Virus record (IMG/VR): IMGVR_UViG_3300046778_000102
Span: 1 to 30,276 of that record
Length of the DNA: 30,276 bases
Source: a virus
Lineage: Duplodnaviria; Caudoviricetes
Reading direction: 5' to 3' (one strand)
The first letter of the stretch is position 1. Each line of letters starts with the position of its first letter. The notes under the pieces are model-generated. The model was not told where the DNA came from. It did no database searches and worked only from the letters and a program-made list of their open reading frames with translations. The position numbers were made by a program, and so were the translations under genes. Below, one piece after another: positions 8,676-18,049 of this stretch.

Positions 8676-9064
8676 ATATTTGGTTTCCAAAATGTTTTGG
8701 ATAGGAAGAAATCTTTTACTTCAGTTTTATGGAAACTGTAAGTAGGTTTTGATGTTATCATCTGATACTTGTCATCATGTTTCACACATTCAACAGAGTG
8801 TAGGTAAAAATCAATACTGTAACCAGACTTGTTAATTACCCATACAGTTCCACCAGCACGTGATCTTCTAAATCCCCATACTCTCTGTTCCTTACGGACA
8901 AGAACTTTGTTTTCTGGACAAACTTTTAATTCCAACCACACTTCGTTTCCCTTCCAGCAAGCGTTGACATCAGGTGTTCCAACTCCTGCTGCATTCTCAA
9001 TACGAATAATGTCACCAGGAATCATCAGTCTTATAGAATCCCACAATCTTTGTTCAGGTGTCAT
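8672..9064 (-). CDS. PD-(D/E)XK nuclease, Holliday-junction resolvase/VRR-NUC-like
   Basis: Start re-set to 9064 (ATGA overlap with the polymerase stop). E...RIEN..GVGTPDV...WLELK...EQRVW. Confidence 0.82.
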   Translation of the reverse strand: MTPEQRLWDSIRLMIPGDIIRIENAAGVGTPDVNACWKGNEVWLELKVCPENKVLVRKEQRVWGFRRSRAGGTVWVINKSGYSIDFYLHSVECVKHDDKYQMITSKPTYSFHKTEVKDFFLSKTFWKPNI

Positions 9065-10929
9065 TTCCAATGGTCTCCTAGTTCTAGTTCCGCATAGATA
9101 GGAACTGTGCACTGCACACAATTCTCCATGACGTGTTGAATCTTCAAAGCTTGTTCCTCACATGTTACAGAGTGATCGAGTTCATCGTGAACGGTTAGTA
9201 GGGGAATCTCACCGTGCTGCTTATAGTTCTGAATCATTGCAGCCTTGGTCATGTCGGCTGCTGAACCTTGAATCAAGGCATTAAGAGCCTTGTATGTGTA
9301 AGCTCTCTTGAGTGGAGCATTGGGCCACTTCTGTCTAGCTTTCTCTAATGGCATCGCAAAGCTCTTGTAATCTTTCCTCTTGAGTTCCCACAGATTGAAT
9401 CTTCTTTTGCGACCAAGCAATGTTTTGATATATCCTCTCCTGTCTGCTAAATCCATGCAGATGTCAGAGAGTTGTTTGATGAATGGATTAGCCTCATTAA
9501 ACACACGCATTACTTCCATTGATTTCTCTGGTGAGAAGCCGAGGTCTTTGGAAATCTTGTCTTTACCTTCTCCATAACAGATTCCCAGAGTGAGGTCTTT
9601 GGCAGGTTTGCGAGGAAGTCCAGCAGCTTTCGCAACCAGAGGATAAAAGTCTGTTTTCTTATCTGCTAGATAGGCGTCTCGAATCTTGTCTGCTCCCAAT
9701 AGCTTCATGATGAAGCCATAGTGTGTCAAGATACGAGGTTCTTGTTGAGAGTAGTCAAGCTTGGCCCATTTTTCACCAACATCCGGTAGGAACAAGGCTC
9801 TAATCTTGTGAGCAAACTCATGCCTGGAAGGAATTTGCTGCAAGTTGGGATTACTGACGGCAAACCTCCCTGTTCTCGTTCCATCTTCATCGCTTCTTGT
9901 TTGATGGAACTCTGCATGTATGCGCCCATTAACATGATTTCCGAAAATTGTCGTCTCGATGAAGTTGCAACGTAACGTTTTAAGATTTCGAACCTGAAGA
10001 ATCTTCTTGAAGAAGGAATTGTCACTGTTCTTGAGGAAGTTCTTGTCGAATGAAGGATTACCTTTTTCTGTGAGAGAGTATTCATAACCAAGTTTCTTAC
10101 ACACTTTAACAATGTCTGCACTAGACATTGGATTCACATTAAATCCAGTCTCAAGTCTTATGCTCTTGTTAATTTCATCTTCTGCTTGTTTGAGTTCCTT
10201 CCTCAAACGGTCTGCTGCATCGAGGTCAACACGAACACCCTTCATTCGCATCTCAAGGACAATCTGTAACAACTCACACTCCATGTTGAATACAGACCAG
10301 ATTCCCTCTGACGTCAGAACTTCTTCCTGCTTCTCATAAATAGCAAGGGTCATGGCTGCATCAGCCTCGGCATAAGGCCCAACATATTTGGAATGTAGTT
10401 GATGTAATCCACCTTTAGGATCAACACCGTAAGTAGAGGCAGCCAGCTTGAGCAATTCCTCATTCTTCTTGAATCCAAGATACTTCTGACCTAGGGCAGA
10501 TAGGTTGTAACCCTGTAACGATTCCTCATCAATCAGAGATTCTGCAATCTGCACACATCGAAGTTGACCCTTGAGTGTAATACCCATGAACCTGAGCCAT
10601 TCAAGGTCATATCCAAAATTCGCGCATACCTTCTCTATATCTGCTCTCCCTGCCACTTCACAGAGAAAGTTAACGATGTTCTCTTTTGGTAGGTTGCCAC
10701 CAAGAGTGTGATCAAATGGATAGTAAGCCTTGAAACCTGTATTGGTTGCAATCGAGACACCAACAGGGTATCCATCACGCCTGATACTTCCTGGGCCTTT
10801 GTTTTCAATGTTGGGGTCTTTAGTTTCCAAGTCTATAACCATGCGCCTTACGTCACCAAGATTAGGAAACTTCAACTGTGGTTTCCAGTTACTATCAGGC
10901 TCAAATAATGTTAGGTTGATTCCTGTCAT
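9061..10929 (-). CDS. polA: DNA polymerase family A with 3'-5' exonuclease (Leu at the 762-equivalent)
   Basis: ExoI IDLET, ExoII NFGYD, ExoIII YAEAD; TRTGRF..SNPNLQQIP; motif A DYSQQEPR; motif B RKPAKDLTLGICYG; IQGSAAD; motif C VHDEL. Confidence 0.96.
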   Translation of the reverse strand: MTGINLTLFEPDSNWKPQLKFPNLGDVRRMVIDLETKDPNIENKGPGSIRRDGYPVGVSIATNTGFKAYYPFDHTLGGNLPKENIVNFLCEVAGRADIEKVCANFGYDLEWLRFMGITLKGQLRCVQIAESLIDEESLQGYNLSALGQKYLGFKKNEELLKLAASTYGVDPKGGLHQLHSKYVGPYAEADAAMTLAIYEKQEEVLTSEGIWSVFNMECELLQIVLEMRMKGVRVDLDAADRLRKELKQAEDEINKSIRLETGFNVNPMSSADIVKVCKKLGYEYSLTEKGNPSFDKNFLKNSDNSFFKKILQVRNLKTLRCNFIETTIFGNHVNGRIHAEFHQTRSDEDGTRTGRFAVSNPNLQQIPSRHEFAHKIRALFLPDVGEKWAKLDYSQQEPRILTHYGFIMKLLGADKIRDAYLADKKTDFYPLVAKAAGLPRKPAKDLTLGICYGEGKDKISKDLGFSPEKSMEVMRVFNEANPFIKQLSDICMDLADRRGYIKTLLGRKRRFNLWELKRKDYKSFAMPLEKARQKWPNAPLKRAYTYKALNALIQGSAADMTKAAMIQNYKQHGEIPLLTVHDELDHSVTCEEQALKIQHVMENCVQCTVPIYAELELGDHWK

Positions 10930-11333
10930 AGAGTCACCTGTTCTGTAAGGATGCCATGACGATTAGCAACTTCTAACGATTTCAAATCCTTCTCATATGC
11001 TTCATGAAAATAGACTTTTCTAATCTTAAATGCTGCTAATACAGTCATACAATAGGTACAAGGTAGGAGGGTTACGATTGCTATGACTGGTGCTTCTAGT
11101 CTCTTATGGAAGGAAGATAGTGCATCAATCTCTGCATGAATCATGAACGGTCTCCTTGCCTCCCTGTCCTGATACGCAGAGCGTGGTTCTTCCTTAGCCA
11201 AGTGATTGAAACCAAGACCAACTACAGTCTCTTGTTCATCGAGCAATACGCATCCAACTTTCTTGAACGGGTCAAGAGAACCAGATGAATAACTGTATGC
11301 TACGTGCATTAGTTCTTTAATTCTAGAATCCAT
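10926..11333 (-). CDS. dCMP deaminase family
   Basis: DP.KKVGC, HAE, PCTYC zinc-deaminase motifs. ATGA overlap with polA. Confidence 0.9.
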   Translation of the reverse strand: MDSRIKELMHVAYSYSSGSLDPFKKVGCVLLDEQETVVGLGFNHLAKEEPRSAYQDREARRPFMIHAEIDALSSFHKRLEAPVIAIVTLLPCTYCMTVLAAFKIRKVYFHEAYEKDLKSLEVANRHGILTEQVTL

Positions 11334-11334
11334 A

Positions 11335-12144
11335 TTATTTTGCTGACTTGATTAAGTCTTTAAGAAAGTTGATATTAGTTCTTTTGACCTCATGGTCTTT
11401 CATGACTTCGAGATAAGCCAATACATCATTTGCATCCTTGAACTCAGTGATGTCGAGAGGTTTATAATCCCAAGCGTGAGGAGCAGAGAGACATTGCTGT
11501 GCAGACGCGATATTTTTACGATATAGATGCTGACTGCCGGCATTGAAGTAAAGGTCTCCAAGTTCCAGTGTTGGAAGCCACTGGTGCAAGGCTTTAACCA
11601 CGTAGGCAGCAATCATCGAGAAGTTGAACACATCATACGGCCAACCAAGCCAAATGTCAGAACTACGCATAGTGTGAATAACATCGAGCCTGTTATTACG
11701 AATTAAAAACTGGTCTGATATGGTGCATGGTATGTCCTTGCTCTTAGCAGGGTTAGGTTTCCATGTAGTCATAACAGCCTGACGTGATTCAGGTGAACGG
11801 TGCAGGGTCTCAATGATTTGTGGAAGTTGGTGCATGATCTGTGGCCCATATGCACCATTGAATGTGAGTCCATTATCTGAGAATGCTGCAATTTGGCTCG
11901 AATAAGGTTCGATCGTAGAAACACGGTCATCACCTGACAGAATCCACCATGCTTCAGCAAACATGAACTTGTATCCAAGATTCCTGTTCATCACAGACAA
12001 GGCACAACGATTCATGGGAATACGTGTCGAGTAATTCAGAATTTCGAAAGTATCCATCCCACGAGGATTGACCGTGTTACCATAAGACAGTAAATCGTAC
12101 ACTGTCTTCAGCCAGACCTGATTGATATCGAGATTTAAATTCAT
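11335..12144 (-). CDS. Thymidylate-synthase-fold enzyme, probably a dCMP (hydroxy)methylase
   Basis: FAE, AYG, SRQA, KDIPCT (catalytic Cys), QFLIR, MRSSD..LGWPYD, NAGSQHLY. Asp at the Asn177 specificity position. Start likely ATG 12144; the track start 12243 overlaps the kinase by 167 nt. Confidence 0.85.
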   Translation of the reverse strand: MNLNLDINQVWLKTVYDLLSYGNTVNPRGMDTFEILNYSTRIPMNRCALSVMNRNLGYKFMFAEAWWILSGDDRVSTIEPYSSQIAAFSDNGLTFNGAYGPQIMHQLPQIIETLHRSPESRQAVMTTWKPNPAKSKDIPCTISDQFLIRNNRLDVIHTMRSSDIWLGWPYDVFNFSMIAAYVVKALHQWLPTLELGDLYFNAGSQHLYRKNIASAQQCLSAPHAWDYKPLDITEFKDANDVLAYLEVMKDHEVKRTNINFLKDLIKSAK

Positions 12145-12661
12145 TCTGGATGGATGAAATAAATTCGGTAATATTGTTTCCTTCGATTTCGATTCTATAT
12201 TTGATTCCGAGTTTTGGGATGTAGATTGCTGAGATTTGTTCATATGTGTTAGTTATCTGTTTGTATTGTTCTTCGTTGAGTGAATGAGCAGGGTCAACGT
12301 GTCCCTGTTTGTAACGATTCCATGCTCCCTCTGAGGAGCAGAAAATAAATAAGCAGTCAAGCTTTATTACTTCTTTGTGAAGCTCTAATGCTGTCTTGTT
12401 GTAATGATTCCCTCGACCCATGATCGAGCCATAGACCAATTCAGATAGAAAATATCGGTCGAGAATCACGTTATGACCCTCGGCCAACATGAGCTTCACG
12501 TTGTCCAGGATATTCCAATGATAATCTGCAAGAGCAGGAAACAGTTTCTTACTTGCTGTGCAGTGAAATGGGACAAGGTGATAAGCTTTTGTGAGTTGAT
12601 TCACCAACGTGGTCTTGCCACATTCATCTGGGCCTTCTACAATGATTAACTTTCCTTGCAT
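12077..12661 (-). CDS. dNMP/thymidylate kinase-like
   Basis: P-loop VEGPDECGKTT; LDRYFLSELVYG (TMK-type DR motif). Confidence 0.85.
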   Translation of the reverse strand: MQGKLIIVEGPDECGKTTLVNQLTKAYHLVPFHCTASKKLFPALADYHWNILDNVKLMLAEGHNVILDRYFLSELVYGSIMGRGNHYNKTALELHKEVIKLDCLFIFCSSEGAWNRYKQGHVDPAHSLNEEQYKQITNTYEQISAIYIPKLGIKYRIEIEGNNITEFISSIQNEFKSRYQSGLAEDSVRFTVLW

Positions 12662-12951
12662 AAAGCTCCTGATTTGATGGCATGCTCAGTGTAATGAGCA
12701 ATCTTTTTAAGTTTAGCACTTCGTTTCTTATAATCTCTCCAGTTTTTAGGAATAATATTCTCTTCTTCGAGAACTAGAATAACTGTGTCTAAATCATTCA
12801 GTTCATCAATTAAACGTTCAAGATTAGTTCCAATCTCCGGTTTTTCAGGGTGACTATCATCAAGTCCAAACCTGAGTGACTTGTTTGCCATTTGCCCAAC
12901 TTCGCAGCATTCTTCAGCTAGGCAGGCAAGTAAATGTTCTTTAATATTCAT
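12646..12951 (-). CDS. MazG-like NTP pyrophosphohydrolase
   Basis: LAEECCEV...K.LRFG...DELND, the EExxE...ExxD all-alpha NTP-PPase signature. Start re-set to MNIKE. Confidence 0.75.
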   Translation of the reverse strand: MNIKEHLLACLAEECCEVGQMANKSLRFGLDDSHPEKPEIGTNLERLIDELNDLDTVILVLEEENIIPKNWRDYKKRSAKLKKIAHYTEHAIKSGALCKES

Positions 12952-13525
12952 TGTTAATAGCGTCAAGATGTTGTTGCAATTCGTTAAACACGTAGTCCAT
13001 CTTATCTGTCACATCATGGTTACAGTTCCATGGTTGAGGAAACGTGATTGTTTTGCCACTGCAGTTGATGAATTTCTCAATATTTGATGGACAATCATCA
13101 ATCAGGATGGTGTTAGGTTTAGCTAGAAGATGTTTATCCTTCATCAGAATAAACTTGGATGGTGAAATAGTGGTGTTGTCACGCAGCCATCGGAACTTTT
13201 CCTCGTAACAGGAAGCATAAGGTTGCGGCCAACTGTTCACATACACTTCTCCATAACTGAGGCACATGCCAATTAACTCCTGTGTATGAGAGTATTGAGG
13301 TAACTTGTGCCAGAAGTCAGGGTGATTCTGAATTGTGTCATATATCTCCTTGTCTGACAGGGGAGTATAGAACATGTTTTCTTCACGCACCTGATTGATC
13401 CATGGAACAATGTCATAGACCAAGGGACGTTGAGCAGGGAGTCGGTTGACCTCGAACAGGCGAAGTACTGGTGTGAAGAAATCACACAACACACCATCCA
13501 TGTCTAGATAAATGACTGGTTTCAT
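12941..13525 (-). CDS. HAD-family 5'(3')-deoxyribonucleotidase
   Basis: YLDMDGVLCDF (DxDGV), FW..L, EK..WL, ILIDD, PWN. Start 13525 by ATGA coupling. Confidence 0.85.
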   Translation of the reverse strand: MKPVIYLDMDGVLCDFFTPVLRLFEVNRLPAQRPLVYDIVPWINQVREENMFYTPLSDKEIYDTIQNHPDFWHKLPQYSHTQELIGMCLSYGEVYVNSWPQPYASCYEEKFRWLRDNTTISPSKFILMKDKHLLAKPNTILIDDCPSNIEKFINCSGKTITFPQPWNCNHDVTDKMDYVFNELQQHLDAINNEY

Positions 13526-13641
13526 AGTGATTTCCATACAAAGATACAGCATCGGATTGTTGCTGTAATTCCAAGAGAGGTAAGTGAAATCATAGCACTA
13601 ATTGGTAGCCAATATTCAAATAAAAATGAAGTAGGTTTCAT
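13522..13641 (-). CDS. Small 39-aa membrane peptide, absent from the ORF track
   Basis: MKPTSFLFEYWLPISAMISLTSLGITATIRCCIFVWKSL. ATGA overlaps at both ends fill the gap exactly. Confidence 0.65.
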   Translation of the reverse strand: MKPTSFLFEYWLPISAMISLTSLGITATIRCCIFVWKSL

Positions 13642-13913
13642 TTCGCGTTCCTTTCTTTTACGTGTGGGAGGGAATTGTAAAGCTCAATTACTGACGACTT
13701 CCATTTAAATCTGTCATCATAAGATGAAACAACATTTGCTAACTCATCCACGATTTTACGTAATTGATTACGTTCTGTAATAACTTCTGAAATCAATTTA
13801 GTTCGTTCTTTCAAATCTGGTCTTTCCATCAATATGCGTTTAAGTTTCCCCTGATTATCATGAGCGTGTTTCCATTTATCACGTTCAAGTTCTAATGGGT
13901 ATTTGTCGCTCAC
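13638..13913 (-). CDS. Hypothetical coiled-coil protein
   Basis: GTG 13913 in a GTGA overlap with the ligase stop, preceded by GGAGG. Confidence 0.6.
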   Translation of the reverse strand: MSDKYPLELERDKWKHAHDNQGKLKRILMERPDLKERTKLISEVITERNQLRKIVDELANVVSSYDDRFKWKSSVIELYNSLPHVKERNAK

Positions 13914-14854
13914 ACTACCTCCATATCTTCTCGGAAGCCGAGAAACACAGGACAACGGGGTGCATCCTTCTGTCCATGAGGTTGATACTTAAACTTGACT
14001 AAACGATTCTTGTATGAATCTTTCATCAGCCAAATATTCTTCCTCGTTTGTTCATCGAACCCTGTGCCGATGTTGAATTGGACACTGTTATGTCCTACAA
14101 CAATCAATGCACCAAGTGTGTTTCCTGGAATCTTACCTGCTTGATGTGAGGAACGTTCTGATAAACCTAGAGCGTTGGTCATTGCCTCGTTTCCATTAAC
14201 CATTAGTTCCTCGAACCCAATGACCGTAGCCTCTGCATCTTGGAAGCGTTTGAGTTTCAGCAACCACTGTTGATTGAACGTCGAACGTCCAAACTTGTAA
14301 GGCCCATCTATGTTCCTGAGCATTACTCCCTCGAAACCAGTTTGCAGGCAAGCTTCTTCGTAGGCAAGCAGGTTGGTTTCATTCTGAATCAATACTGGTA
14401 GGACTTTCTCCAGCTTGCAATCTGTTGGAAAGTTCATCTTATCCTTGAGCCATTCCATCCTGTCCCAATAAGGTAATGGTTCAACGAGGTCGAACACATG
14501 GAATTTAAAATTAGGTTGACCTTCCTGACTCATGATCTTGGATTCAACCTGATAGTATTCATCCATTACTCCATCGGTGTATGTAATGAGTTCACCATCA
14601 AGACCTGTCAGGTTGTATTCACCAAGGATACTCTGCACATACTTGTTAGGTATTGATTTCAATGAACGACTTACTGCTTCAACAGATGTCTTGTTGAACA
14701 TGTCCAGGATTATCTTCTCTCTGGTCACACAACGAATACCGTCCAGTTTGGGAGTTGCTAGGAGTGGATACTCCAATTTCTTCATGTCCTTAATTGACGC
14801 CGCCAGCATTGGGCGAAAGTCAGGACGCATCACGAATTGATTCTTATGAGCCAT
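13910..14854 (-). CDS. lig: ATP-dependent DNA ligase
   Basis: PMLA, motif I PKLDGIR, LDGEL, FHVFD, EGVMLR, LLKLKRF.D.EA, IGTGF, PRCPVF. Start re-set to MAHKNQF. Confidence 0.93.
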   Translation of the reverse strand: MAHKNQFVMRPDFRPMLAASIKDMKKLEYPLLATPKLDGIRCVTREKIILDMFNKTSVEAVSRSLKSIPNKYVQSILGEYNLTGLDGELITYTDGVMDEYYQVESKIMSQEGQPNFKFHVFDLVEPLPYWDRMEWLKDKMNFPTDCKLEKVLPVLIQNETNLLAYEEACLQTGFEGVMLRNIDGPYKFGRSTFNQQWLLKLKRFQDAEATVIGFEELMVNGNEAMTNALGLSERSSHQAGKIPGNTLGALIVVGHNSVQFNIGTGFDEQTRKNIWLMKDSYKNRLVKFKYQPHGQKDAPRCPVFLGFREDMEVV

Positions 14855-14859
14855 AGTTC

Positions 14860-15276
14860 TTACTTTCTTGTTGTGACGTCCGTTTCGTAGTGATATAGTA
14901 TGTTGGACGCCTTCACATACCAAAATTGTTGACTGTTTGTAAATTGAACAGGTAAATTGATCGTTGCAAAATTTGTGACATTGATTGTCATATTAGTCAA
15001 CAGGACATAAGGCCCTGTTACATTCGTGCTTGTGAATACACGAAAATATCTCCATTGATTGAAACCATCAACGATGTCCCATGATAGGAAATGATTGATG
15101 GTTGGAGGAATTACTACTGAAAGTGAAACCGACGATGAAAGAGTCGCAGCTTTCATCGTCGGCATGGGTGGTGTCACCACGACCACCCGTTTCCTGCTCG
15201 CCAAACCAGTCGAGCAGGAAACAATGGCACAGCACGCCAAAACTGTGCCAAAATTTTTTAGGTGAAGTTTCATCAT
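14860..15276 (-). CDS. Putative lipoprotein with a small FN3/Ig-like beta domain
   Basis: MMKLHLKNFGTVLACCAIVS-C lipobox-like; Pro/Ser linker; LSWD...FRVFTSTN..GPYVLLTN...QFWYVKA. Confidence 0.55.
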   Translation of the reverse strand: MMKLHLKNFGTVLACCAIVSCSTGLASRKRVVVVTPPMPTMKAATLSSSVSLSVVIPPTINHFLSWDIVDGFNQWRYFRVFTSTNVTGPYVLLTNMTINVTNFATINLPVQFTNSQQFWYVKASNILYHYETDVTTRK

Positions 15277-17117: not shown

Positions 17118-17306
17118 TTAGTTCTTTTGTTCTGTGTTTGTCCAATGTACTGCAAGTTTCAATCCTGCATTTTTAGTTACCACGAATGCCGTAGTGTAGA
17201 ACTTATCCAGGATTATGAGGTCAAGTTCCTTGGCTACCTGTTCCAAGCTATCACCTGTTAGAGTGAATACAACCTCTGTTGTATTGACGAATGTGAATTT
17301 TAGCAC
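17118..17306 (-). CDS. Small hypothetical early protein
   Basis: 62 aa; GTG start overlaps the pentapeptide gene stop; fills the gap exactly. Confidence 0.55.
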
Positions 17307-18049
17307 AACTCACCCCATTTCTTAATCAATTCAATTGAGTCAAGATACATGGGACATTTGTGAGTATTTTCAATTTTAGTCTTCAACTCCTCCAATGTTC
17401 CCCAGAAACATCCAGATTGAATCAGGATACACGTCTCATGTTTTACTGCGTAGATAATTCGTCCAGAAGTAAGCATTGGGCCAATTTGTATAATTCCTTT
17501 TGCTCCTGATAGGTATGCTCCTGATAGGTCTGCTCCTGACAGGTTTGCTTTTGATAGGTCTGCTCCTGATAGGTCTGCTCCTGATAGGTTTGCTTTTGAT
17601 AAGTCTGCTCCTGACAGGTTTGCTTTTGATAGGTCTGCTCCTATCAGGTATGCTTTTGATAGGTCTGCTCCTGACAGGTTTGCTTTTGATAGGTCTGCTT
17701 CTGACAGGTTTGTTCCTATCAGGTATGCTTTTGATAGGTATGCTCCTGATAGGTCTGCTCCTGATAGGTTTGCTCCTGATAGGTCTGCTCCTGATAGGTT
17801 TGCTTTTGATAGGTCTGCTCCTGACAGGTTTGCTTTTGATAGGTCTGCTCCTGATAGGTTTGCTTTTGATAGGTCTGCTCCTGACAGGTTTGCTCCTATC
17901 AGGTTTGCTTTTGATAGGTCTGCTCCTGACAGGTTTGCTCCTGATAGGTCTGCTCCTATCAGGTTTGCTTTTGATAGGTCTGCTCCTGACAGTGTATTTT
18001 CTTCAACAGTTTTGATTACTTCTCCAATTAAGTTCTTAATTTCTATCAT
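17300..18049 (-). CDS. Pentapeptide-repeat protein with a C-terminal GCFWGT domain
   Basis: About 33 A(D/N/Y)L(S/I)(G/K) units; C-terminal ...[13 protein letters not shown]. Confidence 0.92.
17501..17998. repeat. 15-bp tandem repeat encoding the pentapeptides
   Basis: + strand units tgctcctgataggtc / tgcttttgataggtc / tgctcctgacaggtt. Confidence 0.95.

Follow-up and report, generated by a model that had tools for sequence, protein, structure and literature searches.

The IMG/VR virus record IMGVR_UViG_3300046778_000102 (Duplodnaviria; Caudoviricetes), a whole linear record of 30,276 bases that we analysed over its full length and call the window (completeness about 73%), carries on its minus strand a five-gene nucleotide cassette (positions 10926 to 13525) coupled to polA. 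The best explanation for this cassette, to which we give a probability of about 0.42, is a T4-like hydroxymethylcytosine (hmC) pathway by which only part of the cytosine in the phage DNA is replaced. We directly observe the gene order, the active-site residues, the lack of the methyltransferase of this phage family and an avoidance of restriction sites, and from these we infer the pathway steps. A thymidylate synthase (TS)-fold enzyme would put a hydroxymethyl group from methylenetetrahydrofolate on C5 of dCMP, a kinase would turn hm-dCMP into the diphosphate, and the phage polA would incorporate hm-dCTP beside the remaining dCTP, with a MazG-like enzyme and a nucleotidase (NT5C) trimming canonical pyrimidine nucleotides and a deaminase, like T4 cd, feeding dUMP made from dCMP into host thymidylate synthesis. 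Since hydroxymethyl transfer leaves the folate unoxidised, dihydrofolate reductase (DHFR) would not be needed, and the lack of a decorating enzyme together with a swapped MazG would make protection incomplete, so that host restriction would still select against cytosine-containing sites.

The TS-fold enzyme (11335..12141, minus strand, 268 amino acids; PF00303, E 4e-22; start backed by homologues) is probably a dCMP hydroxymethylase, as predicted from its alignments. The motifs that an earlier interpretation from the letters alone (the sequence-only reading) had quoted for it, KDIPCT, QFLIR, MRSSDIWLGWPYD and NAGSQHLY, are all present, and its Asp136, Cys139, Thr140, Asp162 and Asp170 correspond to L143, C146, H147, D169 and N177 of Escherichia coli ThyA. 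At ThyA positions L143/C146/H147/Q165/D169/N177, the window protein reads D/C/T/M/D/D, the same as T4 gp42 (about 26% identity), with the 5-methylcytosine (5mC) phages Xp12 and PaMx74 reading N/C/P/L/D/D and the hydroxymethyluracil (hmU) phages SPO1 and M6 reading D/C/N/N/D/N. The D143/C146/T147/D169/D177 signature is also common to the CMP hydroxymethylase MilA, which is the closest sequence match in the PDB (E 1e-22), before T4 thymidylate synthase. The Asp of the PYD motif (Asp170) pairs with ThyA Asn177 and T4 gp42 Asp179, with no gap, in three sequence or profile alignments, on which the register is based, the profile alignments holding it without gaps at both motifs; in the AlphaFold model (pLDDT 96.7), Asp170 lies within helix 166-185. 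The equivalence of this Asp to Asn177, the dCMP specificity read from it and the closer likeness of the DxxCT loop to the T4 enzyme (Thr at 147 as in gp42, versus His in ThyA), all proposed earlier, are thus well supported by the alignments. According to the parts available to us of the published work, here and below cited by PMC or bioRxiv number, N177D selects dCMP, L143D/E goes with hydroxymethylation and D169N marks 5-hydroxy-dCMP synthases (PMC13326640), and the two highest-ranking markers of contigs with modified C are positions 177 and 147 (PMC8670742). D143, D169 and D177 are invariant in 40/40 loci and 119/119 homologues, and the D169N mark of the RB69 and DLP3 5-hydroxy-dCMP synthases does not occur, the window and 159/159 relatives having Asp.

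An ordinary dUMP-to-dTMP module (dCMP deaminase, TS and dTMP kinase), as in the annotation of phage AXL3, would agree with the database names and with a genome that looks unprotected. It is very improbable, given that Asp177 occurs in 159 of 159 relatives, in which Leu143, His147 and Gln165 are replaced too, and that all NCBIfam ThyA models score far under cut-off for the window protein. A reversed thymidylate route of the Xp12 type, in which dCMP is methylated, the deaminase converts 5m-dCTP to dTTP and some 5mC enters the DNA, has more in its favor, as Xp12 and PaMx74 likewise have an Asp177 TS homologue followed directly by a PF00383 deaminase, an arrangement found also in mSCD-B5, and neither ThyA nor ThyX was found in the four genomes of the window's clade (the window and relatives G001, G005 and G006). 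A 5mdCMP synthase and a 5mdCTP deaminase yielding dTTP are described for Xp12 and mSCD-B5, and Xp12 is cited as making thymidine from 5mdCTP (bioRxiv 10.1101/2024.12.05.627091). Nevertheless, we consider this route improbable: the window has Asp143, Thr147 and Met165 rather than Asn, Pro and Leu, no DHFR was found in 4/4 clade genomes, whereas Xp12 and PaMx74 have DHFR next to TS, and in a 45-protein tree these two phages join E. coli ThyA (100/99), away from the window's clade. The window protein falls among those of AXL3, PW916 and two pelagiphages, on deep branches that are long and unsure. Asp at the L143 position, Thr147, the lack of DHFR and the tree position apart from Xp12 and PaMx74 together argue that the product is 5-hydroxymethyl and not 5-methyl. 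The sequence-only reading had offered, as its second model, modification before deamination; the 5-hydroxymethyl signature and the lack of DHFR make its dTMP branch unlikely, and its hm-dUMP branch survives as an unlikely alternative, weighed below.

With respect to the rest of the cassette, ORF coordinates and profile matches, all on the minus strand, bear out five nucleotide genes coupled to polA. The NT5C-type (HAD) 5'(3')-deoxyribonucleotidase (12941..13525, 194 amino acids; PF06941 E 5.8e-13, phrog_2643) is followed by a MazG-like NTP pyrophosphohydrolase (12646..12951, 101 amino acids; phrog_4856 E 3.4e-20, no significant Pfam match), a dNMP (thymidylate-kinase-like) kinase (12077..12661, 194 amino acids; PF02223 E 1.2e-9, TIGR00041 under cut-off), the TS-fold enzyme and a dCMP/dCTP deaminase family protein (10926..11333, 135 amino acids; PF00383 E 5.8e-13, HAE...PCxxC intact). 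The next gene is a family A DNA polymerase with a 3'-5' exonuclease (polA, 9061..10929; PF00476 E 1e-56, PF01612). The tight overlap that had been noted holds for three cassette junctions (11, 16 and 65 nucleotides) and for the deaminase stop and polA (4 nucleotides, ATGA), but TS and deaminase are separated by 1 nucleotide. The absence of glycosyltransferase, ThyX and DHFR was likewise borne out: no glycosyltransferase or carbamoyltransferase match was found among the 38 window ORFs scanned, no DHFR or ThyX was found in contig-wide searches of the window (about 73% complete), and none of the four was found among the 57 ORFs of the complete relative G001.

The kinase has a match in 25/27 genomes, the window counted, and the window MazG has no BLAST match in the 26 other genomes. 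This MazG occupies the slot of a PRA-PH-type (PF01503) enzyme in relatives, with G001 and G005 having PF01503/phrog_671 there; among the four clade genomes, the swap to phrog_4856 is seen in the window alone, the PRA-PH-type enzyme, which shares families with the Xp12 enzyme, being kept in the other three. A dCTPase role of the window MazG is a putative one. NT5C relatives in viral contigs are 25-33% identical (80 loci), and the two genomes checked for TS were both without it. We rejected NT5C as a counterpart of the Xp12 'HAD hydrolase', as the two show no similarity and the Xp12 protein is PRA-PH-like. Also rejected was the assignment of polA to DpoZ: the DpoZ model, although the best-scoring NCBIfam model for this protein, reaches 297 bits versus a cut-off of 500, and the window showed no purZ-like gene.

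The window differs from most of its relatives in lacking a methyltransferase. Of 47 loci (a redundant set in which some loci are incomplete), 36 carry a class I S-adenosylmethionine methyltransferase (PF13489) within the cassette, as do 32 of the 35 additional records searched; the gene is absent from the window (G000, 73% complete), G001 (100%), G005 (100%) and G006 (97%). These four form one primase clade (SH-aLRT 99), placed among methyltransferase-positive genomes. NT5C is present in 3/4 clade genomes (G001 has no match) versus 0/20 methyltransferase-positive genomes, and a deaminase of the SxDP subtype is found in 4/4 clade genomes as well as in a few methyltransferase-positive ones (ct3Et533, G002). 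The gene order in G005 is identical to that of the window (NT5C-pyrophosphatase-kinase-TS-deaminase-polA), and the window and G001 share about 74% DNA identity.

We next consider restriction-site avoidance, which spans the whole contig (1..30276, no strand) and was assessed with an order-2 Markov null and a synonymous-codon shuffle. Sites were classed by their behaviour on fully C5-modified DNA (PMC7653180, supplement file 2): 31 sites still cut fully or partly on T4gt or Xp12 DNA and 123 blocked, with A/T-only and 'very partial' sites left out. Because T4gt DNA has 17% glucosylated hmC and Dam methylation (PMC7653180), GATC is better judged from Xp12. A site was counted as avoided at observed/expected <0.3, expected >=8 and Poisson P <0.001 under the Markov null, after removal of nested sites. 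The seven methyltransferase-negative cassette genomes avoid 7 (window), 7 (G001), 8 (G005), 4 (G006), 4, 4 and 4 independent blockable sites, whereas the 20 methyltransferase-positive genomes, hand-picked for spread from about 40 and counted over at most 40 kb each, avoid 0 (13 genomes), 1 (6 genomes) or 2 (1 genome). A Mann-Whitney comparison gives P = 2e-5, uncorrected for kinship, with the negatives representing three independent lineages. Five cassette-free capsid relatives avoid 5, 7, 14, 15 and 21 blockable sites, and the methyltransferase-negative counts fall near the bottom of that range; these capsid relatives are distant controls (38-49% identity), none being clear inside the primase family. 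For the references, of which 25-50 kb each was counted (T4: 36 kb), the counts are Xp12 1, PaMx74 2, T4 0, AXL3 1, SPO1 3 and M6 20. The positives' hosts do restrict, since in 11/20 positive genomes still-cut sites are avoided (GTAC, GATATC, CATATG, GATC; 16 cases versus 8 of the blocked class).

The window purges the blockable GGNNCC, GGWCC, GDGCHC, GTMKAC, RGGNCCY, GAATTC and ATGCAT, plus the non-blockable GTAC and RGATCY. GGNNCC is observed 0 times versus 51 expected under the Markov null, and the codon shuffle gives observed/expected counts of 0/39 for GGNNCC, 3/24 for GGWCC, 0/10 for GRGCYC, 2/14 for GTMKAC, 6/22 for GDGCHC and 5/68 for GTAC, with a weaker purge of ATGCAT (0/5). As GGNNCC is at zero in both the window and G001 (0/54, codon shuffle) despite their about 74% identity, this selection is ongoing. 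CpG depletion in the window (0.65) was rejected as a deamination scar, being common to low-GC relatives of all classes, and GATC/GTAC depletion was dropped as support for full C modification after degenerate and 6-base sites had been counted. Among the methyltransferase-positive genomes, G002, G003, G042 and G045 are depleted in AAGCTT and GAATTC (codon shuffle; G045 0/17 and 1/9), sites with one C per strand that are blocked on T4gt DNA (PMC7653180), a pattern that may stem from their base chemistry.

Selection on blockable sites makes genome-wide replacement of C doubtful for the window. The first model of the sequence-only reading, genome-wide C substitution, fits the methyltransferase-positive relatives, as illustrated by the resistance of AXL3; the window's own site avoidance, an indirect measure, leans against it. 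Full replacement by undecorated 5hmC, as in a T4 glucosyltransferase mutant, with host restriction enzymes that tolerate 5hmC, is accordingly unlikely in our view. The gene set for it is complete (synthase, kinase, pyrophosphatase and own polymerase), the relatives look protected in the avoidance counts, AXL3, whose enzyme is 44% identical, is restriction-resistant (PMC7504290), and the purged GTAC remains partly cleavable by RsaI and CviQI when the DNA is T4gt (PMC7653180). On the other hand, NlaIV, AvaII, BanII, Bsp1286I, AccI and EcoO109I are blocked on T4gt and Xp12 DNA, and NsiI and EcoRI on T4gt DNA (PMC7653180), yet their sites are purged in the window; Xp12, PaMx74 and T4 avoid almost no blockable sites, and the reading needs 4-8 tolerant isoschizomers for each genome.

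Modification before deamination, with hm-dCMP or hm-dCTP converted to an hm-dU nucleotide that replaces T, C staying canonical and NT5C and MazG removing dTMP and dTTP, seems to us about equally unlikely. Most enzymes cut hmU DNA (8.3% resistant for SP8; PMC7653180), hmU phages avoid C-containing sites (SPO1 and M6, as counted above), and the clade does not avoid AAGCTT (codon shuffle, 14/12, 31/20, 17/12 and 45/26), a site at which SP8 DNA is hardly cut; conversely, the window is depleted in GAATTC (codon shuffle, 2/12), at which SP8 DNA is not cut. Methyltransferase loss goes together with NT5C gain and with the SxDP-type deaminase. Human NT5C-family enzymes prefer dUMP and dTMP, so that a diversion to hmU would fit this gain. 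Against this, G001 shows the same avoidance with no NT5C match, a T7-like methyltransferase-negative genome with no deaminase match also avoids sites, SxDP deaminases occur alongside the methyltransferase too, and several specificity changes, all putative, would be needed. In favor of this reading, family deaminases can yield 5hmdU from 5hmdC in E. coli, 7 of 90 doing so in a T4 gp42/gp1 strain (bioRxiv 10.1101/2024.12.05.627091).

The deaminase itself does not settle this question. The window protein is of the SxDP subtype, most relatives being of the STCxRR subtype in the alignment, and it is 27% identical to both the Xp12 and the M6 deaminase, which is not diagnostic of substrate, so that we dropped the reading of its substrate from these comparisons. 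Deaminase selectivity for 5m/5hm-dCTP over dCTP is polyphyletic (bioRxiv 10.1101/2024.12.05.627091), and the substrate is therefore not readable from sequence. In the same preprint, a TS lies close to 104/149 deaminases on C-modified contigs, and PRA-PH and polA are frequent neighbours. The deaminase gene is accessory to the cassette, 6/20 methyltransferase-positive genomes having no BLAST match to it within the 40 kb or less covered for each, which favors the partial hmC reading.

Several points weigh against partial hmC replacement. Avoidance indicates cuttable DNA, and partial hmC, hmU with plain C, and full hmC with tolerant host enzymes are not separated by it; hosts may also differ in restriction load, a host effect that is uncontrolled in the comparison. 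The seven negative genomes amount to three lineages, and three of these genomes are 49-69% complete. A pooled palindrome score, for which some loci are mislabelled where genes fall outside the stretch, overlaps between the groups (0.71 for the window, with a range of 0.66-1.08 and a median of 0.87 for methyltransferase-positive loci). Where a dCTPase-like gene is retained, one would expect substitution to be driven towards completeness. With respect to the enzyme, L143 only 'appears to correlate' with product (PMC13326640), the family members G008 and G011 have Asn at this position, and 5/7 deaminase-linked TS tested made 5mdCMP (bioRxiv 10.1101/2024.12.05.627091).

The partial hmC pathway has its closest functional parallel in T4, where gp42, gp1, the gp56 dCTPase and the cd deaminase make up the same set of functions with the same D143/C146/T147/D169/D177 signature. 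Unlike T4, the window is a small polA podovirus-like genome in which no glucosyltransferase, ThyA or DHFR was found (a T4-type DNA glucosyltransferase was found neither in the 38 window nor in the 57 G001 ORFs), and it avoids seven blockable sites where T4 avoids none. Another close known system is that of AXL3, PW916 and ct3Et533, whose cassettes (methyltransferase, NTP pyrophosphatase, kinase, Asp-TS, deaminase) have the same order and whose enzymes belong to the same clade as the window's (41-44% identity, DVPCT/DIPCT and PYD). The window differs from them in having no methyltransferase, an added NT5C and a different MazG, and from AXL3 and PW916 in deaminase subtype. AXL3, which also carries ThyX, has DNA cut by 2/37 enzymes, both at A/T-only sites, with all 35 G/C-site enzymes resisted (PMC7504290), whereas the window genome looks cuttable, judged from site counts. 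SPO1 and M6 dUMP hydroxymethylases share Asp143 with the window enzyme, and their genomes avoid C-containing sites as the window does; M6 also encodes a dCMP deaminase. These phages keep Asn177 and so deaminate first, in contrast to the Asp177 of the window.

Both models of the sequence-only reading are already in print as concepts for methyl-C phages, and this kind of pathway is itself known. The avoidance split and the variant with NT5C but no methyltransferase appear to be new: a literature search lacking most subscription journals turned up no report of either. Within the same scope, it also gave no pertinent publication on methoxymethyl-C as a phage base, restriction-site avoidance among phages of this kind, natural conversion of hmC to hmU, or the DNA chemistry of HTVC200P. 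The split is evidence, from genome sequences alone, that DNA is protected in members with the methyltransferase and not in those without, linking an uncharacterised methyltransferase to protection and making the methyltransferase-free clade a natural control for identifying the base of this large family of small phages. It also cautions that an Asp177 TS with kinase and MazG need not mean genome-wide C replacement. The window deaminase is a candidate hmC-selective enzyme, a class now used for methylation sequencing. If hmU were the product, a cytosine-replacement cassette would have been rewired to thymine replacement, a natural route to hmU DNA bypassing dUMP, and methyltransferase loss, NT5C gain, deaminase subtype and returned site avoidance would all follow from that switch.

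Other relatives show further variants of the cassette. In G027 (C1:30157-32504) and G028 (C1:21753-24085; loci L391 and L393), the methyltransferase slot holds a C5 DNA methylase (PF00145) and a T4 beta-glucosyltransferase-like protein, a label that comes from Atlas features (0.96) and is a lead only. The pair would fit a hydroxyl handle with leftover plain C; the two genomes have CpG ratios of 0.21-0.30 and a purged CTAG, and the glucosyltransferase-like protein is absent from 4/4 clade genomes. G008 (C1:16230-19869) and G011 (C1:11356-12171) have Asn143 as in Xp12, yet keep the methyltransferase, with ThyX within the G008 cassette. In many relatives, 330-amino-acid kinases (such as L011:9556-9999) have a fused C-terminal domain of 150 amino acids with no Pfam or PHROG match, which by eye we take to be a candidate uracil-DNA-glycosylase-like fold; ct3Et533 has a separate annotated G:T/U glycosylase. 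A minimal two-gene version, kinase and Asp143/Asp177 enzyme only, is found in T7-like phages (L002, L003, L019, L021, L032 and L043), a set that includes the temperate pelagiphages HTVC200P and HTVC119P.

By Pfam and PHROG profile matches, the window encodes portal, capsid and tail-tube proteins of podovirus-like type, together with a module of polA, primase and helicase. Positions 9000-15000 are matched without differences by one contig of a public freshwater run, which may be the source of the record; no RNA run was among the listed matches, and in a freshwater sediment run 14/15 aligned contigs have >=99% identity to the window. Immediately upstream of the cassette lies an ATP-dependent DNA ligase (13910-14923, minus strand), which G001, G005 and ct3Et533 retain; an enrichment of ligase domains on modified contigs has likewise been described (PMC8670742). 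Between ligase and NT5C sits a 105-amino-acid ORF with no family match (13638-13955, minus strand), which is dispensable, since 13525 and 13914 are joined in a related contig from run X5. Further along, the window encodes a pentapeptide-repeat protein (17300-18049, minus strand, 249 amino acids; PF00805 E 9e-85). GGWCC, ATGCAT and GDGCHC are frequent restriction sites of filamentous cyanobacteria, and their avoidance, together with the pentapeptide-repeat protein, provides a weak lead on the host of the window.

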